Source: Candidatus Kerfeldbacteria bacterium (GTDB taxonomy: Bacteria; Patescibacteriota; Patescibacteriia; SBBC01; CAIJZX01). Taken from it: 64,000 nucleotides of DNA. Shown piece after piece: positions 45,701 through 64,000 of this stretch (position 1 is its first letter; each line of letters begins with the position of its first letter). The stretch lies in NCBI GenBank assembly GCA_963731735.1, contig CAVSWO010000001.1, forward strand, positions 64,761 through 128,760, given 5' to 3'. A program made the position numbers and the translations under genes. The notes under the pieces are model-generated. The model was not told where the DNA came from. It worked only from the letters and a program-made list of their open reading frames with translations, and searched no databases.

Positions 45701-46099
45701 TTACAGCTTCGGCCATGGGGTAAAACACCACAGCAGGAACAGAACGCCGATCGCCTTGGCCAACCCGGTTACCACCATGCGAACTTTGGTGTTCGCCTGA
45801 TCCAGGTCATACGCAAAAGATGAGTATTCTCCCTGCATGGTCTGGTTAACCTGGGTGGAAATCTGGCGCAATGATTGCAAGGTGTTGCCACAGTGTGTAG
45901 CCATTGAAAGGCCGATCAGTAGACCAAAAATCGCGAGTGCTCGGCCCATCCAAAGTTGATGGACGATGTGATTCACGATCCAGGCCGACCCAATCATCAA
46001 CATCGAGAAGATGAAGAGAACTGTGAAGGTGATCAATTCTTGCCGAAAGACTCGATATTGCGTCAGCAACGACCGAATAAAGATCTCCTTGGGATACAT
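45701..46099 (-). CDS. hypothetical 3-transmembrane membrane protein (133 aa)
   Basis: AAGGGG lies 6 nt upstream of the ATG, and hydrophobic helices are present. The conserved leader motif lies upstream. Confidence 0.5.
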   Translation of the reverse strand: MYPKEIFIRSLLTQYRVFRQELITFTVLFIFSMLMIGSAWIVNHIVHQLWMGRALAIFGLLIGLSMATHCGNTLQSLRQISTQVNQTMQGEYSSFAYDLDQANTKVRMVVTGLAKAIGVLFLLWCFTPWPKL

Positions 46100-46226
46100 G
46101 GTCAACCCCTTGTCAAGGTATACGGATTGAAAGGTTCAAATCTCTCTTGAGTATCCGATGTGGAGGAACATCAGATACTCGAGGGAAGCGGGGTTTTGAG
46201 AAGACCTCGCCAACCCCTTGGATTGC

Positions 46227-46457
46227 TCAGGCAGATTGCCGGTGACTTTGCTGTTCCAACCAGATGCGATTGTGGGAGCGGATAACCTCACGGATATCCT
46301 CACCCATCAAGTCACAGGCTGCCCGGAGCATCCGCACATCGGTGGTTTCGCCGTTCGTGAAATTGACGATGATGTGGTAAGCCTCGGTAACTTCGGATAC
46401 CGGCTGCGAAGCCTGATCCGAATTGATGCCAAACAGCATCTGCATGAAGCGCCACAT
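46227..46457 (-). CDS. hypothetical small protein (77 aa)
   Basis: AAGGAA lies 7 nt upstream of the ATG. Sequence MWRFMQMLFGINSDQ…. The upstream ORF-track extension has no start context. Confidence 0.45.
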   Translation of the reverse strand: MWRFMQMLFGINSDQASQPVSEVTEAYHIIVNFTNGETTDVRMLRAACDLMGEDIREVIRSHNRIWLEQQSHRQSA

Positions 46458-47305
46458 GGAATATTCCTTTCCGGGCGGCAAGGGGTATGATTGATGCAAG
46501 GAACACAGCAGGAGGCGAGCGAGACGCGATTTTGCCGAACCGAGGTCAGACGTATCGCGTGATGTCCGTGTGCCGAGGCTTTGAGAGTTAGACCCTCGTA
46601 GCCTGAAGCTCAGGACGGCCGGAATCAATCCATGCTTGAAAGCAAATTGACCGCCGGTGCTCTCCCCTCCTTGTGCATTCCGTGAAGGCAGGAAGTAAAG
46701 TTGTAAGATGCTCTCGGAACAACACGATGGCTTTGATCATCCGTCGATTCCTCCGATGGTAGGCAAGTAGAATGAACGTGGAATTTCGGAACATATCGGG
46801 AGGCAAGCGTACCGCGTTTATTCGCCCGAAGGTGAATGTCGCGGTGATGTTGACGCGGTCTGGCTTTGGAAGTCGAGACCTCCGAGGCTAGGCAACGAAA
46901 ACGGCTGGAATGGATCCATGCTTGTAGCGAATCCAGAACCAGTGCTCTCCCCTCCCCGTATGTTCCCCCGTCGCGGATACAACCGTGACCGACGGGGACT
47001 TCAATCCATAGGTTCCTGCGACTCAAGACACGCGGCCCGAAGCCGCAGAACCAACGGATTGAAATGAAAACAGGTGTGGTAGTTGAGGACAATGTCGACA
47101 ACACACCACACCCGTTTGCTTGGATATGAGAATATGTTTCGAACAACGTCTCCTCAACGCGTTCTTCCGAATAATTGTAGGGTGCGCTCGAAGCTGTCTC
47201 CTCTTCAGTTCTCAAGCGTAACGAAGCAGCATACAGCAGCCCTTTCAATATGTCAAGAGGGCGCTGGCGCTACCCTGTGCTATTTTGGCTAATCTTAGCT
47301 TAATT

Positions 47306-49444
47306 CTATTTTTCTACCAACGAAAATACCCGTGAAACTGATGAGTCTGTTTTCCAACTGACCGATTGTTTTTGCGACTGACCGCTGGTCGGTGAATAGG
47401 ACCGAATCGCACCCTTGGCCAACTTGGCCGTAACCTGCCAATCCCGGCTGGGCGCGCCCGGTTGTTTTTGCCAGGTCAGCGACCAATCGGTATCGGTTCG
47501 GGGGGTCGAAAACGTGAAGGTGAGCGTATCGGATTTTCCGGGCGCCAATAAACTCCAGGCCCCAAACACTTTACGGCCACTTTCTTCCGTTATCCGTAAG
47601 CCGCGATCCGGTTCCACTAGAATTTTGCCCTCGGCTTGGTCAAGTTTTTTCGAGCGCTGTGTCTCGTCAGCCGGCGTCATATAAAAACCAGCCGGTAACG
47701 TAGCGGCTCCGGATACGTTCTTGAAGGTGGCGCTGGCCGGTGCATAGACTCGGATAAAGTCCCGATTGGTTTGGCCCGTCAAAGGATCATCAGTCTGTCC
47801 GTGATGCTGACGGTGAACGGCGACGGTGTAATTGACGACGTCAGACTTTATATCGGCGGTAACGGCCACCGCGGTATCGATGACCCGATCCGTTTTTCCG
47901 CCACCCAAATTTGTATCAACCACCGCCAGACTATCCCCAGTTTTTGGGGTGACCAACGCCCCATCCCAGCCTAAGCGGGTAACCGCGTCTTGAACGGCGG
48001 TAGCTCGGCTGGTAATTAGAACGTTGGATTCGGCCGCCTGGGTCAGTGTAATGGCCACCGCCTGGAGGGCTTCCGGCGCCGTAAATTTCGTCATGGCTTT
48101 GAATAAAGCGGGAATCAGGTCCAGTAAAAATTCTTTGGGATTATTCAAGGCAATATCATAGCCAAATTCAACTTGCAGTTCCGTGGCCCGGACAAAATTA
48201 TCAGCCGTAATTTCCGTTTGGTAGCCCTGGGGAGTGATCGGCCCGGTCAACCGGAGTAGATCCTCGACCAGGGCGGGGGTTAGATAGATCACCCCCTGTG
48301 GTCGAAAGCCGCGCGCCTGTTCGTAAAAGTCTAGCAGAAAATCCGATGATGTCGGAACATCAAAAAACCAGTTGGCGTCATGGAAGGTCCAGTACGGCGC
48401 GACGGATAATATCGGTTCGGGCGGCAAGCTCGTATGCGGAATTTGAGCCGTCAAATCAAATGGCCCGGTCACCGGCGCATCCAATACCTTAAAGGTTCCC
48501 CGATCGAATTTGACCAATAAGAAGGTGCCGATAAATCCCCCGGTGGCCCGGAGTTCGTCATTGTTTTCAAAGACCACCAGATACTCTTGAGGTTTCGCCT
48601 GACCAAATAAGCCGGTCAATAAGGTTACCACGTCATGCAATCGGGTACTGCTCCCGATCAACGAAGCGTCAGCCAATTGCCAAGCGTGAAATTGTTCGCG
48701 ATAGGCGGCCGGAACGGCGCCGAGTTGAACTTGATGTAACGCATCGCGGGCGGCTTCAATATGGGCGATAACCGGCTCCAGCCGATCGGGCTGGGCCAGC
48801 AACGGCGTCAAAAAACCTAAATTGCCGGAAATGATCCCCTTAGTGTTTACCTGTGGCAAAGGATCGACCGGCGGCGCGGCCGCGATTAAATCGCTGGCCA
48901 AACGACCGGCTTCCGAGGCTTCCCGCCCGGCGCTCAAGAGGGCTTCAGCTGAGCGAACCCGACTGCCAGCCCACGGCACCGTCCGGACCACCGACAACGG
49001 GAGGCCGAAATCATGACGCAAGGTGGTCTCGGCGGTTTGTAATTCGTTGGCGGCCTGGCCAAATTTCTGGCCGGCGGTTTTGGGTTGATTTTGACTGAGG
49101 GCTTGACCGGCAGCCTGTAGCGTTTGGAGGGCCTGTTTGGCCTGATCCTGGACCCGTCCGACGGTGCCAGCCGCCTGGACAATTTTCCAGCCGCCCCAAA
49201 CGCAACCGGACACAACGCCCACTAACACGACAAACTTAGCGGTTTCTCGAAGAAAGCGAGTCCGGTCAAACCGTGAACGACTTGGGTTATGCGTTGGCGA
49301 TGCTGCGTGTTTGGTCCCCGACCAACGTGGAAATTTCCGGCGTGGCCGCTTTTCCTGACGGGCACGATCTTCCGCTACCTGACGGAGATCCAGGACATTA
49401 TTCGGTTGTGCGCTCACGGATGCCTCCAACTGATTGATAAACAC
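47306..49444 (-). CDS. large membrane-anchored hypothetical protein (DUF4012-like, polysaccharide-locus associated)
   Basis: 712 aa. Basic N-terminus, one transmembrane helix (FVVLVGVVSGCVWGGW), then a long extracytoplasmic domain. Its position next to GT4 and Wzz genes is typical for DUF4012 proteins. Confidence 0.5.
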   Translation of the reverse strand: MFINQLEASVSAQPNNVLDLRQVAEDRARQEKRPRRKFPRWSGTKHAASPTHNPSRSRFDRTRFLRETAKFVVLVGVVSGCVWGGWKIVQAAGTVGRVQDQAKQALQTLQAAGQALSQNQPKTAGQKFGQAANELQTAETTLRHDFGLPLSVVRTVPWAGSRVRSAEALLSAGREASEAGRLASDLIAAAPPVDPLPQVNTKGIISGNLGFLTPLLAQPDRLEPVIAHIEAARDALHQVQLGAVPAAYREQFHAWQLADASLIGSSTRLHDVVTLLTGLFGQAKPQEYLVVFENNDELRATGGFIGTFLLVKFDRGTFKVLDAPVTGPFDLTAQIPHTSLPPEPILSVAPYWTFHDANWFFDVPTSSDFLLDFYEQARGFRPQGVIYLTPALVEDLLRLTGPITPQGYQTEITADNFVRATELQVEFGYDIALNNPKEFLLDLIPALFKAMTKFTAPEALQAVAITLTQAAESNVLITSRATAVQDAVTRLGWDGALVTPKTGDSLAVVDTNLGGGKTDRVIDTAVAVTADIKSDVVNYTVAVHRQHHGQTDDPLTGQTNRDFIRVYAPASATFKNVSGAATLPAGFYMTPADETQRSKKLDQAEGKILVEPDRGLRITEESGRKVFGAWSLLAPGKSDTLTFTFSTPRTDTDWSLTWQKQPGAPSRDWQVTAKLAKGAIRSYSPTSGQSQKQSVSWKTDSSVSRVFSLVEK

Positions 49445-50531
49445 TGAGCGTTGCGCGCGCCATATCGGACCAAGAGAATCGGGTCAGTCGTTCTTTGCCG
49501 GCTGCGATCAACTGCTCACGCTCTAGTTTATCATGAAGTGCGTGATCAATCGACCGGGCGATGGCCTGAGTATCCTGCGGGTCAAAATAGCGGGCGGCCG
49601 CTCCGAAGATTTCCGGTAAGCATGAAGCCTTCGACGCGTAGACCGGAATTCCGGCCTGCATCGCTTCCAACCCCGGCAAGCCGAAGCCTTCATACAGTGA
49701 CGGGAAAAAATAGGCTTGGGCATGCTGGTACAATGCGGCTAGTTGATGGTCTTCCGCAAAACCGAACCATTGCAGGCCGGTTATGTTTCGATCAGCCGCG
49801 TACTGCTGGAGTCGACGAGAAAAATAATCACGTTTTCCAACCAAGACGAGTTGCGCCTGCGTGGCCGCGTTTGCAATCTGCCAGGCATCAATTAACCGTT
49901 CCAAATTTTTATGCGGATAAGAATTTCCGACATACAGTACGTAGGGCGGCCGAATTCCTTTCGCGGTCAGGCTTGACCACTCGGCCGGCGGCGGCAGCGG
50001 ATCAACGGCTTCATAGGTCACCGTTAATTTTTCGATTGGCACGTGAAACTGTCGATGCACATCTTGTTTGGTATATTCCGAAACACAAATGATGGCCTGG
50101 GCTCGGCGAATAGCTCGGGTAATCACCCACCGATAGGCCAGGTACTTGATCCAATAAAAGAGCGGGCCTAAGGTCGAAGCCCGGGCCGTCGGGTATCGAT
50201 GCAGCGTTAAATCGTGAATCGTTACCACAAAGGCGCCGCGGTACCCAACCGGGACATTAAAATGCGGGAAGTGCATCAAATCAAGTTTGGCTTGATGTAA
50301 AATTTTTGGAAATTGGCGTTGCTCAGTCAGGCTATACCAGCGAAAGTCAGCCCGAACTTTTGTCCAGCGCTCATTCGGCGGTTCCCAGTGTTCCCAAGCT
50401 TCCGATCGCAAAAAGACCACGTACTGATTGTGGGTATCCTGACGTGCTAAATGCGTCAACAGGCGTTCGACGTAGCGACCCAGGCCGCTTTCCTGTGGGC
50501 CGAAAAACCGCGCGTCAATACCGATTCGCAC
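49398..50531 (-). CDS. GT4-family glycosyltransferase
   Basis: C-terminal EGFGLPGLEAM motif (the GT-B E-x7-E region) and N-terminal IGIDARF. Confidence 0.8.
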   Translation of the reverse strand: MRIGIDARFFGPQESGLGRYVERLLTHLARQDTHNQYVVFLRSEAWEHWEPPNERWTKVRADFRWYSLTEQRQFPKILHQAKLDLMHFPHFNVPVGYRGAFVVTIHDLTLHRYPTARASTLGPLFYWIKYLAYRWVITRAIRRAQAIICVSEYTKQDVHRQFHVPIEKLTVTYEAVDPLPPPAEWSSLTAKGIRPPYVLYVGNSYPHKNLERLIDAWQIANAATQAQLVLVGKRDYFSRRLQQYAADRNITGLQWFGFAEDHQLAALYQHAQAYFFPSLYEGFGLPGLEAMQAGIPVYASKASCLPEIFGAAARYFDPQDTQAIARSIDHALHDKLEREQLIAAGKERLTRFSWSDMARATLSVYQSVGGIRERTTE

Positions 50532-50540
50532 CGAAGACTC

Positions 50541-51152
50541 CTAGCGCAAATAATGTCGGAAAGCCGCCACTCCGACGCCGAAAACAAAACTCAAAACTAA
50601 GGCGATCCCGGCGTAGACCCAGGCATTCGGTCGGCTGGGCGCAATGGCCGCTTCAGATCCAATAATCTCGTAGAGCGATTTACCGGCGGCGTCTTGGTTG
50701 AGGCTGGCCGTCCGATTTTTGAGCACGGTCGAGACTGCTTGTGCAACCGCTTGAGCGCGCTTCTCTGTCCGTTCGGTAAACCGGACGACAATGTTCTGGG
50801 CTGAATATCGTTTGACGTGAAATCGAGAGGTTAAGGCGCTTAAGGAATCGGCCTCGGGATCAAGTTTGGCTTCGGTGTAAATATCATTCACCACCGAGGC
50901 CGTATCAAACCAACTGACCACCGTTTGAGAAAAAATATCAGCCGCCTGCAGCGCATAGTAACCGTCGTATTGATAATCCGGCGTAGCTTCGGCATTGATC
51001 CGGGTCACGGCAAAGCCCTCAGATGCGGCATACCGAACGGGTTGGACGGCGGCTGCAATAAAGGCGGCGGCGGTGGCCACCAACATCATCGACCCAATTA
51101 ACCAGCGTTGCGCCCAGTACAATTTAATATAATCGCGGAGTTCCATTGCCAT
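50541..51152 (-). CDS. Wzz/Cap5A-like polysaccharide chain-length determinant protein
   Basis: Transmembrane helix at the N-terminus and at the C-terminus, flanking a periplasmic domain of about 150 aa. Confidence 0.6.
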   Translation of the reverse strand: MAMELRDYIKLYWAQRWLIGSMMLVATAAAFIAAAVQPVRYAASEGFAVTRINAEATPDYQYDGYYALQAADIFSQTVVSWFDTASVVNDIYTEAKLDPEADSLSALTSRFHVKRYSAQNIVVRFTERTEKRAQAVAQAVSTVLKNRTASLNQDAAGKSLYEIIGSEAAIAPSRPNAWVYAGIALVLSFVFGVGVAAFRHYLR

Positions 51153-51158
51153 ATGCGC

Positions 51159-52265
51159 TTATGGTAGCTGAGCTTGGTGCTTTTGCCAAGCCTGGTCGAT
51201 GGCCTGCCGCAAGTGGCGTTGGAAGGTTGGCACGCTAAAGCGTTCCGCCCATTCGCGAATTGCGGCTGGATCGTACTCGGTCGGGGTAAAGCGGATGACC
51301 GCGTCAGCCAACGATTCCCACTCCTGCTCCTGAAAAAATACCCCGGTGGAACCGGTCTGGACCGTTTCCCGGGCTCCGCCGGCCGCAAAGGCGATCACCG
51401 GCCGGCCGGTGGCCATGGCTTCGACCGCGGTAATGCCGAAATCTTCCTCCTGGGGATTAATAAAGGCGGTGGCTTGGCCGTATAACTGATTTAACGCCTG
51501 GTCCGGCACTCGGCCCAAGAATTCAATATTCGGTTTGGCCATCCGTTGTAACTGTTTCAGGGTCGGACCCGAGCCATAAATTTTCAGCGGCACATTCAAT
51601 TTATTAAAGGCTTGGACGACTAAATCAAAACGCTTATAGGGTACTAACCGACCGCCGGTCACGTAGTAGCCGCCGTCGCCGGTTCCCAGGGTAAACCGTT
51701 CAACGTTGACCGGTGGGTACAAGACCTGACTCTCGCGCCGATAGTACTTGTGAATTCGGTGCTGCACGGTTTTACTATTGGCCAAGAATTGATCAACCCG
51801 GTCAGCCGCCAGGCGGTCCCACATCCGAATCCGGTTGAGAAAGAAGGGGGCGATGGAGCGTAAAGGTTTGGTATACCGCAATTCATTCACATACTCAATC
51901 GTGTCGCTCCACAGGTACCGGGTCGGACTGTGCAAATAGCAGATGTGCAGGGTCTGGGGTTGGGTGATGATGCCTTTGGCAAAACTGGCTGAACTCGAAA
52001 TCACCAAGTCATAACCGCGGAGATCGAGCCGCTCGATGGCGGTCGGCATCCACGGCAAATACCATTGGTAAAAACGCCGGCCACCCGGCCATCGCTGAAT
52101 GAACGAGGTCCGGATGTCCCGGCCCTTGAAAAATTCGTTGGCGTTTTTTTGATTGTAGACCAGGGTATACAGCGGCGCCTCGGGAAACATCTGCATCATC
52201 ACCTGAACCACGCGCTCGGCGCCGCCATCTTGGGCCAGATGATCATGGACGATTGCGACTTTCAT
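51159..52265 (-). CDS. GT4-family glycosyltransferase
   Basis: GT-B fold signatures (VAIVHDHL…, …GRPVIAFAAGGARETV). Confidence 0.8.
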   Translation of the reverse strand: MKVAIVHDHLAQDGGAERVVQVMMQMFPEAPLYTLVYNQKNANEFFKGRDIRTSFIQRWPGGRRFYQWYLPWMPTAIERLDLRGYDLVISSSASFAKGIITQPQTLHICYLHSPTRYLWSDTIEYVNELRYTKPLRSIAPFFLNRIRMWDRLAADRVDQFLANSKTVQHRIHKYYRRESQVLYPPVNVERFTLGTGDGGYYVTGGRLVPYKRFDLVVQAFNKLNVPLKIYGSGPTLKQLQRMAKPNIEFLGRVPDQALNQLYGQATAFINPQEEDFGITAVEAMATGRPVIAFAAGGARETVQTGSTGVFFQEQEWESLADAVIRFTPTEYDPAAIREWAERFSVPTFQRHLRQAIDQAWQKHQAQLP

Positions 52266-52266
52266 G

Positions 52267-53649
52267 CTAGGCGGCGGTTTTCATGGCCACCACCGAACCC
52301 GGCGTACGAACCAAAATCGTCAAATCTAACCCGAGCGACCAATGTTCGATATAATACGTGTCCAAGCGGACCTCTTCTTCAAAGCTTAAATTGGACCGAC
52401 CGGAAATTTGGGCCATGCCGGTCAGCCCGGGTTTGATGGTCAGCAGTTTCTTATGGTGCTTTTCATACCGGGCGACTTCTTCCGGTTCATGCGGCCGCGG
52501 CCCGACTAAACTCATTTCGCCCCGCAAAATATTCCATAACTGCGGCAATTCATCTAAACTCGTCTTCCGTAAAAATTTTCCCACCCGGGTGATGCGCGGA
52601 TCATTGGCAATTTTAAAGAGTGGTCCGTCGGCCCGTTCGTTGTGCTCCATCAGCTGAGATTTCATGGCATGGGCATTCCGCACCATCGACCGGAATTTCC
52701 AAAGTCCGAAACGCCGTTGCCCCTCCCCAACCCGTTCGAGGCGGATAAAAATCGGCCCGGCCGAATCAAGTTTAACCGCGATCGCGATTAGCACGCCCGG
52801 AATACAGGCGATCAGCAAGCCTAAGACGGCCCCGAGCATATCAAAGGCCCGCTTGCCGATCCGTCCCCAGCCGTCCAGCGGGGTGCGCTTGAGTTCCATA
52901 ACCGGAATGCCGGCCAACGAATCAAGCTCAACCTGCGTGGCATGCGCGTCAAACACATCGGCCGCATAGGAGAACCGCACGTTATATTCAAGACAGCGAT
53001 CGATCAACACCTGGGTTTGGCTGCGTGGCAGATTGGCATCAGCTTGAATCACTAAATCGATTTGGTGCGAGCGTAAAAGTTCATCGAGTTCATCAAAAAT
53101 TTCCGGGCCGGCCGTTTCCCAATGCTTGGTAACATGCAGGCCAATATTTTTTGAATGAACCCGCTCCAGCAATTCATGAGTCGTCGGGTCATTCCCGATT
53201 ACGATAATTTGCCGGACGCCAATCCCCCGTCGGTACAGCAAGTGCCGTACCAGGCGCATCAAAAGGTGCGTTAGCCAGACAAACACAATCGCCAGCAGCC
53301 AACCGGCTAAAATGATAAACCGCGACGAAAAAAATTCGCGCTGGAAAAAAATCAGCACGATAATCAGCAGCACGCCGGTTGAAATACCCAGGAAAATCCG
53401 CCCCAGTTCGGCCGTTAATCGTTGCGGTCGAATCGGATAGACACCGGCTAAACCTAAAATTGCGACCCAGCCAATGGCCACGATTATCACGGTTCGAATG
53501 TATCCGCCGAAGGGAATCGGGTTGGCCGCCGGTAAAACCCCGGTCAACTGATCAAAACGAACGGTGTACGCGAACCAGCCGGCCATCACCAAGACGGTGA
53601 TGTCGAGCAGGACCTGGAATGCCGCAAACGAGAGTTCTGTACGCTTCAT
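52267..53649 (-). CDS. polyprenyl-phosphate sugar phosphotransferase (WbaP/CpsE-like initiating transferase)
   Basis: FKFRSM…DELPQLWNILRGEMSLVGPRP C-terminal catalytic domain, with 4-5 N-terminal transmembrane helices. Confidence 0.85.
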   Translation of the reverse strand: MKRTELSFAAFQVLLDITVLVMAGWFAYTVRFDQLTGVLPAANPIPFGGYIRTVIIVAIGWVAILGLAGVYPIRPQRLTAELGRIFLGISTGVLLIIVLIFFQREFFSSRFIILAGWLLAIVFVWLTHLLMRLVRHLLYRRGIGVRQIIVIGNDPTTHELLERVHSKNIGLHVTKHWETAGPEIFDELDELLRSHQIDLVIQADANLPRSQTQVLIDRCLEYNVRFSYAADVFDAHATQVELDSLAGIPVMELKRTPLDGWGRIGKRAFDMLGAVLGLLIACIPGVLIAIAVKLDSAGPIFIRLERVGEGQRRFGLWKFRSMVRNAHAMKSQLMEHNERADGPLFKIANDPRITRVGKFLRKTSLDELPQLWNILRGEMSLVGPRPHEPEEVARYEKHHKKLLTIKPGLTGMAQISGRSNLSFEEEVRLDTYYIEHWSLGLDLTILVRTPGSVVAMKTAA

Positions 53650-53659
53650 GTGTATTCAT

Positions 53660-54305
53660 GCCCGGCTTCAGACCACCGATAAGCCGAATTCTGTCAACCT
53701 CCGCCGGAGGCTACGGTTGACAAGTTCCCTTTCCGGGGATGCTTGCCGGCCGAAGTCTCCGACGCAGGCCGGATGATCATCTCTCTTGGACGGACATTGC
53801 TGCCCGCCTCATGCGATCTACCCGCCCCGCACACCGAGCTGGTGTGGGAGCCTATGCGATCTTGCACCGGAGAGGGTTTACCCGTCCCGATAGTCACCTA
53901 TCGGGACCGTGGGCTCTTACTTTACCCGCCGAAGCGAGGTATCCCTCACGATGGAGGGCCCACGATTTCACCCTTACTTGAGTCTTGCCCTTGGGTTGGC
54001 ATCTCAGCTGTGACTGCCGGTCAGAGACCCGCAGACTGGCCAGTGTGATGCTCCAAGGTGAAGTGCCTGAATAATTCAGACGAAGCAATTCCCGAGCGGT
54101 ATGTTTCTGTTGCACTAATCCCTAGGCTTGGCCCCCACGCCAATACACACGCGCCGGTGTGCATTGGTGTGGGGGTTACTCCCGGTTGCCGTTAGCAACT
54201 CTCCTTGACCCTGCATGTCTGCAGGAGGTGTTCGGACTTTCCTCCCACCGAAACGCACTTGCGTGCACACCGGCGGGCGATCATCTGGTGGTCTGAAAAG
54301 GGCTG
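53660..54305 (-). ncRNA. rnpB: RNase P RNA, bacterial type A, with large insertions (about 645 nt)
   Basis: Minus-strand matches to universally conserved M1 RNA blocks: GGAAAGUCCGAACACC (P4 5'), GUGCAACAGAAACAUACCGC, CAAGUAAGGGUGAAA, GUAAAGUAAGAGCCCACGG, GGGUAAACCCUCUCCGGUGCAAG, ACAGAAUUCGGCUUAUCGGUGGUCUG (P4 3'/P1). P1 pairs CAGACCACC with GGUGGUCUG. Ends are approximate. Confidence 0.75.
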
Positions 54306-54351
54306 GTGCAGCGTACAACAAAGCCGACCGTTTGTCAATCGGAAGTTGCAA

Positions 54352-55452
54352 TTATCCGATGCGCTTTTCTTCGAACCCGAAGGTGAAAATCGCCAAGGCG
54401 ATCATGACCACCGCCCAGCCCGAAATCCAGTAGAGCTGCGTAGCTACGTCGCCAATCCCGGCGCCGTTGGCCACTACATCACGCAAGCCGGTGGCAAACG
54501 GGTGGAGCGGAAAATAGACCACCAAATGCTGTAACCATTGCGGCATGCTGGTGGTTGGAAAGAAAACCCCGGACAGGAAAAGCATCGGGAAGACGATCAG
54601 GTTGGCGATAGCCGGAACCGCGTCCACTGTTTTGGCAATGCCCGAAATGGTAAAGCCCAGTCCCAGGAACATCACGCCGCCCAGGATCACGAACAAGGCA
54701 ATCAGCCACCAGGCGCCATAGACATGGGTATGGAAAATCAGGGCCCCAAAGGCCAGCAAGACAATGGCTTGGAACACCGCCACGATGAGACGGGTAATCA
54801 CCTGAGCGGTCACAAACTGCTGCGGCTTCATCGGCGTAGCCAATAACCGTTTCAGAATCCCCTTCTCTTTATAATCGGTGAAGACGAAGGCTACCGAGAA
54901 GACCGCCATTTGCATCACCGACATGGCCACGATGCCGGGCACGAGGAAATCAATGTAACTGACATCCTTGGCGTTGATGTTTTGAACGTCCAGATTGAAC
55001 AGCGTCGGCGCCTGGGCGTAGGCCAGGGTGGTTCGATCCAAAACTTGGTTAATAATGGCCAGCGCTGTTTGAGCTGATTGTTCTTGGCTAACATTTTTAA
55101 AAACCGTGATTGTTTGCGGTTCGGTGACGGCCTGACCCGGGGCCGGAAATAACTGGTCAGGAATTTGCAGTACTAATGAGCGATCACCATTCTCGAGCGC
55201 TTGTTTTTCCGCCGCTAAGCTCCCCTTGGTGATATCCAAGACATCAATCGAGCCCAGGCTAGCAACAAACTCGGTGGTTGCCTGGTCCGGCTGGTGTAAT
55301 ACGACACCCAAATTTATTTTCTGCGGTTTATCAAAACCAATCAACCCGAAAATACCGATAAAAATAAACGGCATGAACAAGGTGAAGAACAGGGCCTGCC
55401 GGTTGCGCAGGAACATTTTAATTGAAGCCAGGGTCAGAACTTTTGTGGTCAT
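54352..55452 (-). CDS. ABC-2 family exporter permease
   Basis: Six-transmembrane ABC-2 topology with a large first extracytoplasmic loop. Confidence 0.75.
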   Translation of the reverse strand: MTTKVLTLASIKMFLRNRQALFFTLFMPFIFIGIFGLIGFDKPQKINLGVVLHQPDQATTEFVASLGSIDVLDITKGSLAAEKQALENGDRSLVLQIPDQLFPAPGQAVTEPQTITVFKNVSQEQSAQTALAIINQVLDRTTLAYAQAPTLFNLDVQNINAKDVSYIDFLVPGIVAMSVMQMAVFSVAFVFTDYKEKGILKRLLATPMKPQQFVTAQVITRLIVAVFQAIVLLAFGALIFHTHVYGAWWLIALFVILGGVMFLGLGFTISGIAKTVDAVPAIANLIVFPMLFLSGVFFPTTSMPQWLQHLVVYFPLHPFATGLRDVVANGAGIGDVATQLYWISGWAVVMIALAIFTFGFEEKRIG

Positions 55453-55456
55453 AGCA

Positions 55457-56386
55457 TTATTCGCGTAAACTTCGGCCAGTCAGCTTTAAGAAGACATCTT
55501 CGAGCGTGGCAGTCTGCATGTGGAGGTTCGTGACCGTTACCCCGGCTTTGGCTTTCAGTGCAAAGGTGGCCGGCAAGACCGTTTCCGGCTGCTTGGTAAC
55601 GATCCGAACGGTATGATCAATTAATTCGGCCTGCTCTACGCCAGGAATGGCTTGAATCATCGCTATATCAGGTTGTTTATCTACATGTAATTCAATGGTC
55701 GAGCCGACATCGGCTAACTTCAGCAGGCCTTTCGGCGTGTCGAGGGCGATGATTTTGGCGTTGTCCATAATCGCAATCCGGTCACACAGCACTTCCGCCT
55801 CTTCCATGTAGTGGGTGGTCAGGATAATCGTGACACCCTTGGCTTTGATTTGGTTAATCAAATCCCAAAGGTTGCGGCGAGCCTGCGGATCAAGCCCGGT
55901 CGTCGGTTCATCCAGAAACAAGACTTTCGGCTGGTTGACCAGAGCGACCGCGATCGAGAGCCGTTGTTTCTGTCCGCCTGAGAGTTCTTTGACCTGGCTC
56001 TTAAACTTTTCTTCAAGTTGCACTTCGCGCAGTAATTCCAGCGCGTCAACCTTGCGGTTGTACATGGCCGCGAAGGTGTCGATCAGTTCCTTCAAGTTGA
56101 GATTATCGAAAAACGACGAAGATTGCAGCTGAACCCCGATCACCGCTTTGACCTCGCGGGCATGCTTAGCCACATCCTTACCGTCCAAAATAACCGTCCC
56201 GCCGGTAATCTGTTTCAAGCCTTCAATCATCTCCAGGGTGGTGGTTTTCCCGGCGCCGTTTGGACCGAGAATACCGAAGGTCTCGCCTTCGGTCACCGCA
56301 AAACTAATGCCATCAACGGCCGTAAAGTCGTTATAGCGTTTGGTCAGCTTTTCAACAGTGATGATCGATTGCATATTGATGAGCAT
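55457..56386 (-). CDS. ABC transporter ATP-binding protein
   Basis: Walker A motif GPNGAGKTT, signature LSGGQKQR, and Walker B ILFLDEPT. Confidence 0.88.
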   Translation of the reverse strand: MLINMQSIITVEKLTKRYNDFTAVDGISFAVTEGETFGILGPNGAGKTTTLEMIEGLKQITGGTVILDGKDVAKHAREVKAVIGVQLQSSSFFDNLNLKELIDTFAAMYNRKVDALELLREVQLEEKFKSQVKELSGGQKQRLSIAVALVNQPKVLFLDEPTTGLDPQARRNLWDLINQIKAKGVTIILTTHYMEEAEVLCDRIAIMDNAKIIALDTPKGLLKLADVGSTIELHVDKQPDIAMIQAIPGVEQAELIDHTVRIVTKQPETVLPATFALKAKAGVTVTNLHMQTATLEDVFLKLTGRSLRE

Positions 56387-56399
56387 GCAGTTTACACGA

Positions 56400-57164
56400 T
56401 TATTCGGTTTTTTGGAACTGCCAGACGGCTAAGCCCATAAAGACCGCGGAAAACCCCAGTAAGAACAATATATTTACGTACAGCGGATGCACGAGAACAA
56501 TACTATTCGATCCCAACAAGACGCTCCGAAAGGCGTCAACGCCGTAGGCTAACGGATTAATATTCGTCAGCGCCCGCATCCAGCCGGGAATGCTCTGGAG
56601 CGGGAAAAAGGCTCCCGACAGGAAGAATAACGGGAACAATAAGAACTGCATGACCAGGCCGAAGCTTTCGGTCGATTTCATCCGTGAGGCCAGCAGAATA
56701 CCGAGTCCCGAAATTGCGAACGCCAGCAGCGCGGCCAGGCCCAGCAGCGCCAAGACCGAACCGACCGATAAATGGACGCCAATCAGCGGTGCCAAGAGCA
56801 GCAAAATTGCGGCTTGAGCCAGGGAGTTTGTGGTGCCGCCCAGGGCCTTGGCAATCGCAATCGATACCCGTGAAACCGGAGCCACCAGGATCTCCTTGAG
56901 AAATCCAAACTCGCGGTCGTAGACGATTGAAATTGCGGAAGTCAGGGCGATGCCCATGGTGCCCATGGCGATAATTCCCGGATACATGAACTTCAGGAAG
57001 TCGCCCCCGACGGCCGCCGATTGAATACTGTTTTGCAGTCCCATGCCGAAGATAGCCAGAAACAAGAGCGGTTGGGTAACCGACGTAATCGCCCGGGTCC
57101 GGTTGCGCCAGTAGCGGAGCATTTCCCGGTACCAAATGATGACGATGCCGCGAAGTTCATTCAT
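56400..57164 (-). CDS. ABC-2 family exporter permease
   Basis: Six transmembrane helices. Confidence 0.75.
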   Translation of the reverse strand: MNELRGIVIIWYREMLRYWRNRTRAITSVTQPLLFLAIFGMGLQNSIQSAAVGGDFLKFMYPGIIAMGTMGIALTSAISIVYDREFGFLKEILVAPVSRVSIAIAKALGGTTNSLAQAAILLLLAPLIGVHLSVGSVLALLGLAALLAFAISGLGILLASRMKSTESFGLVMQFLLFPLFFLSGAFFPLQSIPGWMRALTNINPLAYGVDAFRSVLLGSNSIVLVHPLYVNILFLLGFSAVFMGLAVWQFQKTE

Positions 57165-57167
57165 AGA

Positions 57168-58145
57168 TTAAAATCCCCGTCGCATACCCCGGAAGGCCTG
57201 GCGTTTGCGTTCAGATGAATCTTGGGTATCGCGTAACGCATGTCCGGTCACATTCAAAAATACATCTTCCAGACTCGGTTCATGAATTTCAATCGAACGA
57301 ATTGGAGTTGAGGTGGCTTTAATCATATCCGGTAAACGGGTGGCTGCGTCAGCAATTTCGATCCGTAACGTTTGGCCGTGAATTTTACTCGTCAATTGCA
57401 ATTTCGCCTGCAGTTCAGCCGCCAGACCGGCCGGATCCTGAGTCGTCAAGGTAATCACGTCTCCGCCGACTGCGTCTTTCAGCTTTTCCGGCGTGTCCAG
57501 TCGCACTATTTTTCCATGATCAATAATCCCGATCCGATCGCAGTACTCGGCTTCGTTCATGTAGTGCGTGGTTAAGAAAATTGTCATGTGTTTCTCGCGC
57601 TTGAGTTTCAGAATATAGGTCCATAAATGATTTCGGGTTTGCGGATCCAGGCCGAGCGTCGGTTCGTCCAGAAACAGAATCTTCGGGTAATGCAGCAACC
57701 CGCGGGCGATCTCCAAACGACGTTTCATGCCGCCGGAGAATGTCTCCACCTTGTCTTTCCGCCGGTCCCAAAGCTCGACCAAGTCAAGCACCTCCCGTAA
57801 ACGCTCCGGGTAGACATCCGACGGAACCCGGTAGAGCCGCGCATGCAGCATTAAATTCTCTTCCGCGGTCAATTTTAAATCGAGGGCCGGCTCCTGAAAG
57901 ACCAGGCCGATTGATTGGCGCACTTCGTTCCGGTGTTTCACCACATCAAAACCCGCCAACTGGACGTGCCCGCTGGTCGGTTTGAGGAGTGTACATAAAA
58001 TGCTGATGGTGGTGGTTTTCCCGGCTCCATTCGGACCCAGAAAGCCAAAAATCTCCCCTTCGCTGACCTTGAAGGAAATGCTATCAACGGCCGTAAAGTC
58101 GCCGTAACGCTTGGTCAGTTGCGCCACTTCGATAACGTCGCTCAT
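57168..58145 (-). CDS. ABC transporter ATP-binding protein
   Basis: Walker A motif GPNGAGKTT, signature FSGGMKRR, and Walker B ILFLDEPT. Confidence 0.88.
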   Translation of the reverse strand: MSDVIEVAQLTKRYGDFTAVDSISFKVSEGEIFGFLGPNGAGKTTTISILCTLLKPTSGHVQLAGFDVVKHRNEVRQSIGLVFQEPALDLKLTAEENLMLHARLYRVPSDVYPERLREVLDLVELWDRRKDKVETFSGGMKRRLEIARGLLHYPKILFLDEPTLGLDPQTRNHLWTYILKLKREKHMTIFLTTHYMNEAEYCDRIGIIDHGKIVRLDTPEKLKDAVGGDVITLTTQDPAGLAAELQAKLQLTSKIHGQTLRIEIADAATRLPDMIKATSTPIRSIEIHEPSLEDVFLNVTGHALRDTQDSSERKRQAFRGMRRGF

Positions 58146-58384
58146 GTTTTGGATTTCTTGAGAACTTCCCGCAAGCCTTCCAGCCGCTGGCTCAAATGGT
58201 CGGCAAACCGCTCGAGTTGTTCAGATTTGGTCAGGGCCAGGATATTCCCGCCCATCCCAAAGACCAGCAATTTATCGCCGGTTTTGAGGCCCAAGGCTTT
58301 CCGGGCCTCGGCCGGCACTACCACTTGTCCTTTTTCACCCAGGGTGGTCGCGCCGAAGAAGTGTTTTTTATGGGAATGTTTCAT
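58142..58384 (-). CDS. AbrB/MazE/SpoVT-family DNA-binding protein (80 aa)
   Basis: Swapped-hairpin motif (GEKGQVVVPAEARKALGLKTGDKLLVF). First gene of the ABC operon, overlapping the next start. Confidence 0.7.
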   Translation of the reverse strand: MKHSHKKHFFGATTLGEKGQVVVPAEARKALGLKTGDKLLVFGMGGNILALTKSEQLERFADHLSQRLEGLREVLKKSKT

Positions 58385-58467
58385 CGAGTGTGGATAATCC
58401 TACTTGTAAGAATTGTAGGAATTCCAGTATAGCAAGCCGGCCGCGGTTGTCAAGCCTCCCCTCCGGA

Positions 58468-59073
58468 TTAGTTGCCCGCGAACAACCGGCGAATGATTTG
58501 TCGCACCTGGGGAAGATGTGGTTGCGAGAAGTGCCCACTCCGTTTGGTGACGACAATCTTGGCTCGGGGCCAAGCCCGATGATAGGCCTGCAACTCGGCA
58601 AACGGGACAATTGGGTCATCTTGGCTATGCAGCAGCCAGATTTGGGGTACTTGGTGTGCCACCCGGGACAGCGATCGCGGTAATCTAAAGTCCCCTATCT
58701 CCTCGGTTTGATTGTGTGGCGCGGCAACCAAAATTAATCCCCGTATGCTTTTCCGGAAGGTGGTGGTGGCCAAATATTTTGCGAGAAAAATCCCGCCCAG
58801 AGAGTGACCAATTAAGACCACGCCGGGATGGATATATGGCAGCATCCGCTCAAACCAGATTTTCCATTCACGATAGACCGCATTATTTTTATTGGGCATG
58901 CGCGGTTGCAACACCTCATAGCTGCGTCCCAGATCACTCGCTAAGTTCGTTTTCCAATCTGGATGTGGCAGAAACGTGTCTTTTGAGACTGGCCAGCGTC
59001 GCAAGGCGCGAAGATACCGGGCCGGTGACGCGAATGAATCTCCACCGTGGATTACAACAATTTGATGTTTCAT
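58468..59073 (-). CDS. alpha/beta hydrolase (serine esterase-like, about 200 aa)
   Basis: IVVIHGGDSF and GHSLGG nucleophile elbow. Start taken at MKHQIVVIHGG. Confidence 0.65.
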   Translation of the reverse strand: MKHQIVVIHGGDSFASPARYLRALRRWPVSKDTFLPHPDWKTNLASDLGRSYEVLQPRMPNKNNAVYREWKIWFERMLPYIHPGVVLIGHSLGGIFLAKYLATTTFRKSIRGLILVAAPHNQTEEIGDFRLPRSLSRVAHQVPQIWLLHSQDDPIVPFAELQAYHRAWPRAKIVVTKRSGHFSQPHLPQVRQIIRRLFAGN

Positions 59074-59255
59074 AGAGAGATTTGCAATTTCCGATACGGT
59101 TAGTCTACAGGAAAATGCCGGAAAAAGCATTTTCATTTGGCGGCCAGCGGAGTTCCCCGCTCCAACCGATTGAATCAAGGATTGATTGACAATTCCGGCA
59201 CAATTGGCTAGGTTCACAACCTCAATCGAAGGAGCAGCTCTTTCACGGAGGAACT

Positions 59256-59519
59256 ATGACCCGCCAAACGGTTACCCACCGGAAGCGATCGAAAATCAAT
59301 CAGGCCTTCGCTACGGCCGCGATTGACTCCCTCGGTTCCGCTCCCGGGCCGGTGAGTGACGCGATGTTGCTGGGAGATGATTACCTGGTTTTGCTGACCC
59401 GGATCAACCAACTGCTCGGAAATCCGGCCGACCATTTCCACGGCCTGGGCGCCCAATCGACGATTGGCCAAGCCAAGACTTTCTTCATGGCTTTGCACAT
59501 CCCGCTCCCGCCCGTCTAA
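59256..59519 (+). CDS. hypothetical protein (87 aa)
   Basis: GGAGGA lies 5 nt upstream of the ATG, and a terminator follows. Confidence 0.45.
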   Translation: MTRQTVTHRKRSKINQAFATAAIDSLGSAPGPVSDAMLLGDDYLVLLTRINQLLGNPADHFHGLGAQSTIGQAKTFFMALHIPLPPV

Positions 59520-59526
59520 CTATGTC

Positions 59527-59560
59527 TGCCCCGGATGCATCAACGCCGGGGCTTTTTTTC
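59527..59560 (+). terminator. intrinsic terminator (GCCCCGG…CCGGGGC followed by TTTTTTTCTT)
   Basis: GC-rich hairpin followed by a run of seven T residues, immediately after the 87-aa ORF. Confidence 0.6.
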
Positions 59561-59660
59561 TTAGTACCAGTCGGCTTGACGCCCAGGGGAGAATTCTTTA
59601 TAGTCAGCCTTCGTTCATTCAGCGCCTTGTTCACCCCTGGTACAACATGGAGGTTCGCCA

Positions 59661-59813
59661 ATGATTTGGCAGGCATTGCACAACGTTGGCCGCATCTTGG
59701 AGGCCCTGTCACCGCTTTGGATGGTCATGTTTTTCTTCGCGGCTGCCATCGCGATGCTGTATGCCTTACGGCGGTTGGACCGCCTTTTCGGCACCCGCGG
59801 GCACCGCAAGTAA
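59661..59813 (+). CDS. small hypothetical membrane protein (50 aa)
   Basis: GGAGG lies 8 nt upstream of the ATG. One transmembrane helix (LWMVMFFFAAAIAMLYAL). Found manually. Confidence 0.4.
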   Translation: MIWQALHNVGRILEALSPLWMVMFFFAAAIAMLYALRRLDRLFGTRGHRK

Positions 59814-59825
59814 CCCGCTCCCCTA

Positions 59826-59858
59826 ATCGACCGGACACCCGTCCGGTCGTTTTTTTAT
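59826..59858 (+). terminator. intrinsic terminator (GACCGGAC-accc-GTCCGGTC followed by GTTTTTTTAT)
   Basis: Perfect 8-bp stem followed by a T7 run. Sits between convergent genes, so it may be bidirectional. Confidence 0.6.
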
Positions 59859-61102
59859 CGTTCGTAGGTTACGGCCGCGTCGGAAAAATTCTCCACGCTG
59901 GCGCAGGATTTCCCGGGAAAGGCTTCGGCCGTGATATTCCGGGTAGCCGTCATTTGGACCAGGAAGCAGCCTTGGACATCCGGGTATTTATGCAAGCTGA
60001 TGGGCCCGGTTGGGAGCGTCATCCCATCCCAGTTTTGTCCGTTCACGTACGACCGGTAGTCTACCAGCGTGTATTTGACCAGGCCGGTCTCGAGACTGAC
60101 CTCAGCCGGATTCGGGCTATCTTCTTTTGCCGCGAACTGCTTGGCGCCGCCCGGCCAGTTGCCGATCGACAGGACCCAGGCTGAGGGGTCCAGGTAATCC
60201 GGCGCCAGTGACAAATGTCCCGTCCAGTAATTTCCAGCGGATTCACCCCGAAGACCGTTATACCCGTGGGTACCGGTTTGGAACCAATTGCCGATCAGCC
60301 GCCCGTCCACGTCGTAGTCAATTTTTCCGCTTCGGGGTTCGACTTGGCGGGCGTACTTAGCCAAGGCCAAGGCTTTGGCCTCATCCGTATAGTAATTCAG
60401 CGGATCAGCCGTGTACTGTTTCCAGGCTTCGGCTGAGTAGTCATCCAAATTCACGAACCCGGTCAGTTTATGCTCGGTGTCCCAGACGGCATAATCGAGC
60501 GTTTGCCCGCCGATTTTCCCGATCAGTTGCCCGGCCGTGACCGGCAAATCAATGTTGTTCCCCTGGGCCGCATAGGCCGCTTGAATGTCCGGCGCCAGGC
60601 TGGTAACCAGGTCATAGTAATACAACAGTCGACAGCTGATAGCGAAGACTAAGCGGTAATCGGTCACCGTCTGATCGGCGTAGTCCCCAAATCCGTTATG
60701 CTGCCGAGTGCTGATTCCAACCAAGCGCGCGTCAGCCACGGCGTAGACGTTATACGTATCCGGGGCCGAATTGAAATCGGTTGGGGAAAAATATTGGTGA
60801 TCGATTGGCGTGACATGCGCGCCGACAACCAAGCCATACGGAAGAATCATGGCATAATCTTCTTGATTCATCGGCAAACGCGGAATCAGCGGTTTATCAC
60901 TGCCGACGCAGTGTTGCGCGCTCAATTCTTTCCCGGCCTGATCGGCCGCCAGGATAGCCGGCTGCTTGGTCGTGGCGGTAGCCGGGGTGCCTGATTGGTT
61001 TGTCTGACTGTCCCGGTTTGTTCGGGTCGAGCCGTACCAAACACCCAGCCCGACCAGCAGTACCACGCCGACGGCGGTCAACCAAAGAATAGGATTACGC
61101 AT
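59855..61102 (-). CDS. secreted/membrane-anchored hypothetical protein (415 aa)
   Basis: Start at MRNPILWLTAVGVVLLVGLGVWYG (signal anchor). The ORF-track extension to 61654 runs into the high-GC region with Arg/Ala-rich nonsense and is rejected. Confidence 0.55.
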   Translation of the reverse strand: MRNPILWLTAVGVVLLVGLGVWYGSTRTNRDSQTNQSGTPATATTKQPAILAADQAGKELSAQHCVGSDKPLIPRLPMNQEDYAMILPYGLVVGAHVTPIDHQYFSPTDFNSAPDTYNVYAVADARLVGISTRQHNGFGDYADQTVTDYRLVFAISCRLLYYYDLVTSLAPDIQAAYAAQGNNIDLPVTAGQLIGKIGGQTLDYAVWDTEHKLTGFVNLDDYSAEAWKQYTADPLNYYTDEAKALALAKYARQVEPRSGKIDYDVDGRLIGNWFQTGTHGYNGLRGESAGNYWTGHLSLAPDYLDPSAWVLSIGNWPGGAKQFAAKEDSPNPAEVSLETGLVKYTLVDYRSYVNGQNWDGMTLPTGPISLHKYPDVQGCFLVQMTATRNITAEAFPGKSCASVENFSDAAVTYER

Positions 61103-61139
61103 AGGTTTACTTTTACGTTGTTGGCAGCATGTAATGGAA

Positions 61140-62330
61140 CCGGTGGCGGCAAGGGCGACGAAGCTCCACCAAACTCGACGCGGTGCGCGCCGAGCTGGGG
61201 GCCGAGGCGATCCCCGTGGTGCTGGGTGATGGGGACGACGAGGCATCGCTGGGCAGCGCTCGCGGAGCGCACCCACGTGGTGTGCACGACGGTCGGGCCC
61301 TACGCCCGCTACGGCGCCGAGCTGGTCGGCGCGTGCGCCCGCGCCGGCACCGACTACTGCGACCTGTGCGGCGAGACCCAGTTCATCCGGCGCATGATCG
61401 ACGCCCACCACGAGACGCGCGCGCGACAGCGGCGCCCGCATCGTCCACTGCTGCGGCTTCGACTCGATCCCGTCGGACCTCGGCGTCCTGCTCCTGCAGG
61501 AGAGATGACGCGCCTCCACGGCCACCCGGCCGAGCGGGTGACCTCGTTCTTCGGCGAGAGCCGCGGCAAGTTCAGCGGCGGCACGGTCGCCAGCATGCTG
61601 AACGTCGCCGACGAGATCGCGGCGCGACCGGTCGGTGCTGCGCGTCCTCGGCAACCCCTACGCGCTCGATCCCGATCCGCGAGCGCGGCGGCCCCGACAA
61701 GGGCGACGCCAAGGGCATCGGCTACGACGCGGCCTGCACGCGTTCACCGCGCCGTTCGTGATGGCGGCGATCAACACCCGCGTGGTCCGGCGCAGCCACG
61801 CCCTGCTCGGCTACCCGTACGGCGCGCGACTTCCGCTACGACGAGGCGGTGCTCACCGGCGCGGGCCCTTCGGCTGGCCAAGGCCGGCGGGCGTCGGCCG
61901 GCCCCGGCGGCGCATGGCGGCCTGCGCGATCGGACCGCTGCGGCGCGCGGCTGTCGCGCTTCCTGCCCAGCCCGGGCGGGGCCGCGCCGAGGCGCGCGAG
62001 GCGGGCTTCTTCGATATCGCGTTCTTCGCGAGCATCCCGACGACAAGCGCACGAGCCTGCGCGCCCGGGTGACCGGCGACCGCGACCCGGGCTACGGCTC
62101 GACCTCGAAGATGCTCGGCGAGAGCGCGGTGTGCCTGGCGAAGCGACCCGCCGGGGCGGGCGGAGGCTTCTGGACGCCGGCCTCGGCCATGGGCGACGCG
62201 CTGCTCGCGCGTCGCCAAGAACGCGGGCTGACCTTCACGATCATCGGTTCAGCCACGCTCAAAGGGGGACGTTCCCTCCTCCGTCGCCCAACTCCACTTT
62301 TCGAGCCCGCGGCTTCGCCGCCGGGCTGAG
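61140..62330 (+). pseudogene. saccharopine-dehydrogenase-family (Sacchrp_dh_NADP / trans-acting enoyl reductase-like) gene fragment, 5'-truncated with multiple frameshifts
   Basis: Recognisable segments lie in different frames (…TTVGPYARYGAELVGACARAGTDYCDLCGETQFIRRMIDAHHE…; …CGFDSIPSDLGVLLLQE…; …MTRLHGHPAERVTSFFGESRGKFSGGTVASMLNVADEIAARP…). No N-terminal Rossmann segment. GC about 70%. Confidence 0.5.
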
Positions 62331-62339
62331 TTGGGCAAC

Positions 62340-62760
62340 AAAGCAGGAACGTCCCCCCTGGTTGCCTAGGCGTCCTTGAGCTCGATCAGGATCTCGGATA
62401 GGTCTTCTTGCCGACGTTGACGCCCACTCGGTGCCGCCCTTGGGCACCGGCACGGTGTTGCCGCCTCGGCGGGACCACGCCGACGAAGGATCCATGCCGC
62501 TGTCCTTCGGCGGGACGCCCGCCACCAGATCGCCCCGAGAGATCGCCAGGTAGTAGTCGTGCTCGTGGTGGTGGAGGTCCGAGGCCTCGCCGGGCGCGAG
62601 CATCATCTCCCAGATCTGACCCGTTGTCGTCCTCGAAGAGCACGCTGGGTGCCGACGCCGCCGATCGGGTCGCCGGCGTGCTCTTCGCGGAACTTCTCCA
62701 GTCGCTCGCGGATCTCCGGGGTCAGCTCTCCGTACTGGGGCATCGAGAACGGGGCGGGCA
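62340..62760 (-). pseudogene. cupin-like small protein gene, frameshifted
   Basis: Segments MPAPFSMPQYGELTPEIRERLEKFREEHAGDP…, then …LFEDDNGSDLG…, then …EASDLHHHEHDYYLAISRGDLVAGVPPKDSG… fall in three frames of the minus strand. Confidence 0.35.
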
Positions 62761-62796
62761 TGGGTCTCTCCTCTCGCTCGTGCGGGGCGGATTCTA

Positions 62797-64000
62797 TCAG
62801 GACTTCCCGGCCGCGGCCTTCTTGCGCTCGTAGAGCGCCCTGCGCAGGTTCGGGCTGGTGACGCCCTCCGGGATCTCCTCCAGGGGTCGGGCGATGTCCT
62901 CGGGCATCACGGCCACGCGCTCGGCGTCGGGCCGCAGCGCCTCGAGGTCGAAGCCGTAGAGCGCCGCCGCGTTCTCGCCCAGCATCATGCGCACCTCGCG
63001 CTCGGGTCCACCTCGGAGAAGGCCAGGCGCATGTTCTCCCGCGAGTAGGGGTAGCAGCCCTCGTAGTGGGGGTAGTCGTTGCCCCAGAGGATGCGGTCGA
63101 CGCCCACGATCTCGCGGCCCTCGATGTCCGCGGGCGAGGGAAGCTCGCGCCGTACCAGCAGTTGCGCTTGGCGTAGAAGCTGGGCGGCTCCGCGCAGGGT
63201 CTTCGACTTCGAGATACTCGACCTCGCCCATCATGCCCAGTCTTCATGCCCATGTGGATGCCGTCCATGCGGCGCATCAGCCCCGGCGCCCAGGCGCAGC
63301 CCGACTCGGTGAGGATGTAGCGGAGCTTCGGGAAGCGCTCGAAGACGCCGCCCAGGATCAGCTGGCAGTAGCCGCGCTGGACGAAGAAGGGCATCTCCAG
63401 CACCCAGAGCGCCTCGGCGCCCTGGTCGTCGCCGTAGCTCGGGCGAGCCCTGGCCCGAGTGCTGGTTGATCACCAGGTCGCAGTCCTGGATCGCCGCCCA
63501 CAGCCGGTCGTAGTCCGGCGGCGTAGAGCGGCTGCGAGGTGCACGTCGTCGAGGGCGAGGGCAGGGGCAGCAGCACGCCGCCGCGCAGACCGTGCTCGGC
63601 GATCCAGCTGCACGTCCTCGATGGCGTCGTCCACGTCGTTCAGGTGGATCAGGCCGATGCCCGCGCGGCGCGCGGGCTCCTCGGCGCAGAAGTCGGCCAG
63701 CCAGCGGTTGTGGGCGCGCGTGCCCGCGCAGCCAGCGCTCGTACTGCTCGGGCTTCGGCGGCGGCGACACGTGGAAGGCCTTGTCGTAGAAGGGCGGCAC
63801 CGTGTTGGGGAAGATCACCTCGGCCACCACGCCGTCGCTCTCCAGGTCGGCGCGGCGCTCGGCCGAGTCCCAGTTCTTGGTCTTCTTGCCGCCGACGTGC
63901 TTCTTCGACGGGTTGCGGTAGGCGCCGCGCCAGGCGTCGAAGTCGTCGCGGTATTGCGGGTCGAGGTACTCGCGGTAGCTGTCGATGGCGGCGCCGGCGT
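62797..64000 (-). pseudogene. amidohydrolase-2-family (metal-dependent hydrolase/decarboxylase-like) gene, frameshifted, 5' end beyond window
   Basis: C-terminal …MMLGENAAALYGFDLEALRPDAERVAVMPEDIARPLEEIPEG. Upstream pieces …GYCQLILGGVFERFPKLRYILTESGCAWAPGLMRRMDGIHMG… and …PDYDRLWAAIQDCDLVINQHSGQGSPE… and MVAEVIFPNTVPPFYDKAFHV… lie in different frames. Confidence 0.45.

Follow-up and report, generated by a model that had tools for sequence, protein, structure and literature searches.

A High-GC Myxococcota-Type Tail with an Error-Rich Consensus Is Very Probably Mis-Joined to a Patescibacteria Metagenome Contig

The 64,000-nt stretch analyzed here (the window) belongs to a contig deposited as Candidatus Kerfeldbacteria and, to judge from its sequence, consists of a metagenome-derived contig of Patescibacteria (candidate phyla radiation, CPR) followed by a tail of Myxococcota type. 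Our subject is the junction between these two parts and the three broken genes beyond it, which we call genes A, B, and C (Table 1). The host part is otherwise packed with long intact open reading frames (ORFs), including those for LepA, MurJ, a PBP2-type transpeptidase, a class II aminoacyl-tRNA synthetase, and PriA, and it also carries three tRNAs and the RNase P RNA. The last host feature before the junction that can be verified as clean is an intact gene for a 415-aa protein, and a frameshift-aware aligner finds no frameshift in it relative to two homologues (P0244 and P0245). Past the junction, the three tail genes switch between frames when the DNA is translated in all six.

Table 1. Coordinates (window numbering) of the features at the junction and of the independent contigs that cover part of the host side
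Feature	Coordinates	Strand	Remarks
Gene of 415-aa secreted or membrane-anchored protein, Patescibacteria type	59855..61102	-	Intact; open frame, ATG at 61,102
AT-richer remnant of host upstream region, 38 nt	61103..61140	.	True breakpoint inside this stretch or at its right edge
Gene A, saccharopine-dehydrogenase family, 5'-truncated, Myxococcota type	61141..62242	+	From about residue 37 of ∼410; 9-12 frameshifting indels
Gene B, small cupin-like gene	62375..62749	-	Convergent with A; 6 frameshifting indels
Gene C, Amidohydro_2, predicted TIM-barrel metal-dependent hydrolase	62806..64000	-	5' end beyond the window; 11 window-specific indel events
Spurious 599-aa ORF	59855..61654	-	Begins antisense to gene A, crosses the junction, and enters the host gene; annotated in the public record
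L081	56,100-59,349		Logan contig, run ERR11594398
L085	45,546-55,936		Logan contig, run ERR11594398

The original prediction, made from the letters alone, placed a sharp rise in GC beside the ATG of the 415-aa gene, and both the start codon and the rise are where it put them. The GC content of the host part lies between 0.49 and 0.57 in 2-kb bins over positions 1-60,000 and is ∼0.53 before the switch, at 61,140/61,141, where it steps up to ∼0.70-0.78; from 61,200 onward, 400-nt windows give 0.67-0.78. A two-segment maximum-likelihood scan of GC sets the change point at 61,140, and homology to gene A, at both the protein and the DNA level, starts at 61,141, so that the compositional boundary and the first aligned base of gene A, as given by four protein alignments and one DNA alignment, coincide. 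The comparison of tetranucleotide usage on the two sides that had been proposed as a check separates them clearly: the tail is 0.064 from the host mean, while the largest distance among host pieces is 0.022. The tail signature lies only 0.019-0.026 from Myxococcota and Deltaproteobacteria loci, and the reverse holds for the Patescibacteria relatives. Between the ATG and the change point, the 415-aa gene retains just 38 nt of its own upstream region; this short stretch resembles the regions upstream of other host genes, and the GC of 61,101-61,150 is 0.48.

The Patescibacteria affiliation of the 415-aa gene is supported by more than 700 homologues of its product at 45-77% identity, of which all those with a named source come from Patescibacteria lineages (Nomurabacteria, Kerfeldbacteria, Berkelbacteria, WWE3, and "Patescibacteria group"). 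The contigs that carry these relatives have a GC content of 46-48%, and their tetranucleotide usage is close to that of the host part and far from that of the tail. The protein has no match in Pfam or NCBIfam, no second copy at 90% identity or higher in the protein collection, and no relative in the scan of metagenome contigs. It has an N-terminal hydrophobic segment and is predicted to represent a conserved CPR surface or secreted family with no assigned function. A conserved upstream neighbor of the gene was not found among its relatives, GreA standing there in two loci (L087 and L088) and a small cupin, unrelated to gene B, in a third (L086). With the upstream context unconserved in this way, these relatives yield no prediction for the native neighbor of the 415-aa gene.

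In the Logan collection, run ERR11594398 has short-read contigs that are 99.8-99.9% identical to the host part and evidently derive from the same strain. The two that we used (L081 and L085) show 14 mismatches and no gaps relative to the host part over 13,641 nt. Together they run from 45,546 to 59,349 and stop 1.8 kb short of the junction. Run ERR11594398 is thus an independent data set in which to look for what natively precedes the 415-aa gene; a search of the literature for this run found nothing.

The pieces of saccharopine-dehydrogenase-family, cupin-like, and amidohydrolase-2 genes that had been recognized in the tail were recovered. The best homologues of gene A share 60-64% identity over 98% of the fragment; they are ∼410 aa long and carry PF03435, and the named ones are from Myxococcota. 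Frameshift-aware alignments to four homologues (P0121, P0123, P0126, and P0131) share 61,141 as their first base, which pairs with homologue residue 34-38, and proceed at 64-70% identity with no stop codon on the corrected path; the DNA alignment to L089, an independent metagenome contig, starts at the same base. The Rossmann start of the protein, which had been predicted to be missing, is therefore cut off at the junction, and ∼36 N-terminal codons are absent. The corrected fragment itself gave no match in a Pfam search, and thus none to the PF03435 Rossmann domain, because most of the N-terminal domain was removed at the junction; the family assignment follows from the identity to full-length PF03435 proteins.

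Gene B has no match in Pfam or NCBIfam. Its putative cupin character comes from a match to the Protein Data Bank entry 9u8n_A, a "Cupin type-2 domain-containing protein" (E = 8.7e-5, residues 33-128), together with weak matches to oxalate oxidase. It shares 76% amino acid identity with a homologue in locus L009 across its six frameshifts, and 84% nucleotide identity with L089, relative to which it shows three single-base insertions and three to four deletions. L089 has a GC content of 71%, and its homologues of A (64%) and B (82%) are unbroken and stand adjacent and convergent as in the window, which marks the tail as a colinear segment of a naturally occurring high-GC genome. This A-B adjacency was recovered in L089 only. 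The full A-B-C order was not found in loci L001-L088, one of which has B 2.5 kb from C in the other orientation, and the loci of P0004 and P0121 have different neighbors.

The corrected protein of gene C matches PF04909 with 90.6 bits against a cutoff of 26.4 (E = 1.9e-25), and the domain is present in all 120 of the 120 homologues listed. Its closest relative, in a metagenome-assembled genome (MAG) of Myxococcota bacterium JB082 (L004), is 89% identical at the nucleotide level; the top genome matches are all from Myxococcota or "Deltaproteobacteria" MAGs, with some Halieaceae lower down, and the best match in the genome contig scan that gave these relatives is 80% identical at the amino acid level. 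The original prediction had called the tail genes actinobacterial, and this part did not hold: where the nearest relatives carry names, these are of Myxococcota, of Deltaproteobacteria, and in some cases of Halieaceae, and none is of Actinobacteria. We note that in several third-party-annotation MAGs (GTDB representatives) labeled "uncultured Spirochaetales" or "Spirochaetaceae", the homologues of gene C share 84-87% nucleotide identity with the Myxococcota-type sequence (L005, L007, L014, L015, L027, and L028 among the genome contig matches), which suggests that the taxonomy of these records is mislabeled.

Every tail gene is broken by several frame changes, as had been noticed from the sequence. 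The frameshift-aware aligner returned the numbers given in Table 1 for genes A and B and 9-10 frameshifts for gene C, with no stop codon on any of the corrected paths. For gene C, we placed the indels by DNA alignment to 14 relatives and by a multiple alignment with 11 relatives. The 11 events amount to 12 inserted nucleotides and 1 deleted nucleotide and lie at 63,730, 63,607, 63,550/49, 63,536, 63,519, 63,443, 63,240, 63,214, 63,194, 63,137, and 63,001/00. Because they fall at identical positions against every relative, they are specific to the window sequence. Most are single-base insertions between two differing neighbors, that is, outside homopolymers, and the only deletion sits in a run of C. 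The spectrum in genes A and B is mixed. In total, the tail contains ∼28 indel events in 2,860 nt, or ∼1 per 100 nt, spread throughout, the first lying ∼110 nt from the junction. At this rate, the probability of observing none in the adjacent 1,248-nt host gene is 5e-6.

What is left once the indels are taken out bears on their origin. Without its window-specific indels, gene C is an open frame of 392 codons free of stops. The encoded protein is 0.78-0.83 identical to eleven relatives, no further from them than the intact orthologues are from one another; L004 averages lower. Nei-Gojobori dN/dS for gene C is 0.29-0.49, compared with 0.16-0.40 among intact orthologue pairs. If drift had gone on for the time needed to fix 11 indels in a gene, that gene would be expected to show a long branch, stop codons, and relaxed dN/dS. 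Bacterial pseudogene decay is also deletion-biased, as Mira, Ochman, and Moran reportedly described in 2001. We saw no in-frame stops in A, B, or C, no relaxation of selection and no deletion-biased spectrum in gene C, and no drift of the tail GC toward the host value. Given that the corrected genes have no stops, that gene C has no long branch, a dN/dS like that of intact orthologues, and a bias toward insertions, and that the GC has not drifted, we read the tail indels as most probably errors of sequencing or consensus in genes that would otherwise function rather than as decay.

We consider it very probable that everything from 61,141 onward is high-GC Myxococcota-type DNA that was mis-joined to a Patescibacteria contig and that carries an error-rich consensus, which is also the first of the explanations put forward originally (a mis-assembled or contaminant chimera, or an error-rich low-coverage sequence). 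The changes in composition, in gene-level taxonomy, and in indel rate coincide at a single point, all three falling within at most 150 nt. As a proxy for read support, the indel rate goes from zero in 13.6 kb of host sequence to ∼1 per 100 nt past the junction. Such a joint change of composition, taxonomy, and sequence quality is not what one molecule population at one depth would give, and it fits a well-covered contig joined to a few noisy reads. The join is most likely artefactual, as far as the assembled letters can tell. In the mechanism that we propose, either the assembler or a chimeric read would have attached a stretch of a Myxococcota-type genome from the same sample to the Patescibacteria contig. 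The tail would be backed by very few noisy single-molecule reads, and its consensus would retain ∼1% single-base indels, so that the frameshifts would be consensus errors in otherwise functional genes. Low long-read coverage may accordingly be the source of the errors.

Several observations weigh against this reading. We found no independent assembly that spans the junction. No adapter remnant was detected at the junction, where SMRTbell, Oxford Nanopore (ONT), and Illumina adapters score no better than they do in random host pieces. The dN/dS of gene C against its closest relative, L004, is 0.49, slightly over the intact range, and the tests of dN/dS and branch length cover gene C only.

The best surviving alternative is a very recent and genuine integration of Myxococcota DNA, for example by a CPR episymbiont that took it up from its host or a neighbor, with frameshifts that are technical and reflect a failure of consensus or polishing at 70-78% GC. 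The corrected genes do look functional, as those of a very recent arrival would, the junction stands in the public record, and short-read polishing can leave regions of high GC with too little coverage. We nevertheless regard this explanation as improbable. A single molecule implies equal long-read depth on both sides, and ∼1% random insertions outside homopolymers would not survive on one side only, yet the error rate switches within ∼110 nt of the junction. The integration would also have left the 415-aa gene with only 38 nt of upstream sequence. Nor did the boundary show hallmarks of integration in the form of a tRNA or tmRNA target, an integrase or transposase, or direct repeats, although only one boundary lies inside the window. 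No integrase-like ORF was found in 58,000-64,000, there is no tRNA near the boundary (the nearest is at 37,752), and repeats and microhomology at the junction are at the level of chance for GC-rich DNA. Among 5.8 billion protein clusters, the fusion occurs in no other assembly.

More doubtful still is a variant in which the junction is real because a CPR cell, or a sub-population represented by a few reads, very recently integrated a fragment of a Myxococcota chromosome, the frameshifts being consensus noise at low depth. If it were true, the junction would show directly that DNA had been taken up from a physical host or neighbor, and it would thereby help to identify that host.

An old horizontal acquisition of Myxococcota-type DNA followed by pseudogene decay, which the original prediction had kept as its second explanation, is very improbable in light of the corrected genes. 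Foreign composition together with truncated and broken genes does resemble a decaying island at first sight, and the junction exists in the deposited contig. However, ∼28 indels normally come with many times more substitutions, whereas the corrected genes have no in-frame stops, and gene C has no long branch and a dN/dS near that of intact orthologues. The tail retains a GC of 0.70-0.78 and a tetranucleotide signature with no drift toward the host, and the 12 inserted nucleotides against 1 deleted in gene C are the opposite of what decay would leave. The lack of a tRNA, an integrase, or a flanking repeat at the boundary tells against an old acquisition as well.

That the junction is a product of cutting out the 64-kb window, perhaps by concatenation of two contigs of one bin, would suit a switch this abrupt with one gene severed at the boundary, but the idea is refuted by a database protein, P0241 (NCBI and ENA; 599 aa, on a single 135,050-bp contig), which matches the junction-crossing ORF residue for residue, the initiator residue aside. 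P0241 consists of the 415-aa Patescibacteria protein and 184 residues from the antisense of gene A. Since it spans the junction, the join and the errors were already in the deposited record.

Cases comparable to a chimeric join of this kind are on record. Long-read metagenome assemblies made with metaFlye, metaMDBG, and hifiasm-meta are documented to contain chimeric contigs that join different phyla, as well as indels that no reads support, and sudden shifts of GC, coverage, and gene-level taxonomy serve as flags of chimeric contigs (bioRxiv 10.1101/2025.04.22.649783). The window shares with them the abrupt shift of GC and gene taxonomy, the frame-breaking indels, and a join across phyla. It differs in that the published chimeras are defined by 100% read clipping and a coverage shift, whereas the window has been judged from its sequence. 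Residual long-read indels that break genes are likewise a known problem, one that both proovframe (bioRxiv 10.1101/2021.08.23.457338) and the work of Sereika et al. 2022 (PMC9262707) address. As in the noisy long-read consensus treated there, ∼1% single-base indels split conserved genes in the tail and can be mended by protein-guided frame correction. Unlike in such a consensus, the errors in the window are restricted to the last 2.9 kb, and those in gene C are mostly insertions outside homopolymers, whereas homopolymer indels are typical of nanopore consensus.

Like a genomic island or a recent horizontal transfer, the tail is compositionally foreign and has its nearest relatives in another phylum; unlike an island, it begins at a boundary with no tRNA, integrase, or direct repeat, with a switch of sequence quality at that boundary and with no independent support for the junction. 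Like genes decaying during reductive evolution, several adjoining genes each contain multiple frameshifts; unlike them, A, B, and C have no stops once corrected, and gene C shows neither excess substitutions nor relaxed dN/dS and is biased toward insertions rather than deletions.

The value of the finding lies in its use as a data-quality flag, its biological interest being low: a public MAG contig of 135,050 bp carries a cross-phylum chimeric tail, and the fused 599-aa P0241 is now in protein databases. If accepted as it stands, the tail would point to gene transfer from Myxococcota to CPR or to pseudogene decay in a CPR genome, and it would inflate statistics on contamination and pseudogenes. 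The analysis also offers a way to separate consensus error from decay that needs no reads, based on indels that are specific to the sequence in question when compared with many relatives, on the indel spectrum, on corrected genes that have neither stops nor a long branch, and on an error rate that switches where the composition does.

Four further observations concern the host part. The bacterial class A RNase P RNA (53664-54296, minus strand; 175.8 bits) extends over 633 nt compared with a model of 367 positions, and four big expansions of ∼51, 120, 45, and 60 nt in peripheral helices make it an unusually large ribozyme. Of ∼25 host genes with ATG starts that were checked at positions 1-61100, most have no Shine-Dalgarno-like purine-rich motif in the 20 nt upstream. 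A tRNA-Gly(CCC) gene (36759-36832, plus strand) lies inside the 5' part of a listed 620-aa ORF (35134-36996, minus strand; DPBB_1 and Peptidase_S11), so this gene must in reality begin farther downstream than the listed TTG. Finally, a small MazE/AbrB-type antitoxin-like gene (58142-58390, minus strand; PF04014, E = 3e-8) with no obvious toxin partner adjoining it sits directly upstream of the gene for an ABC transporter ATPase.

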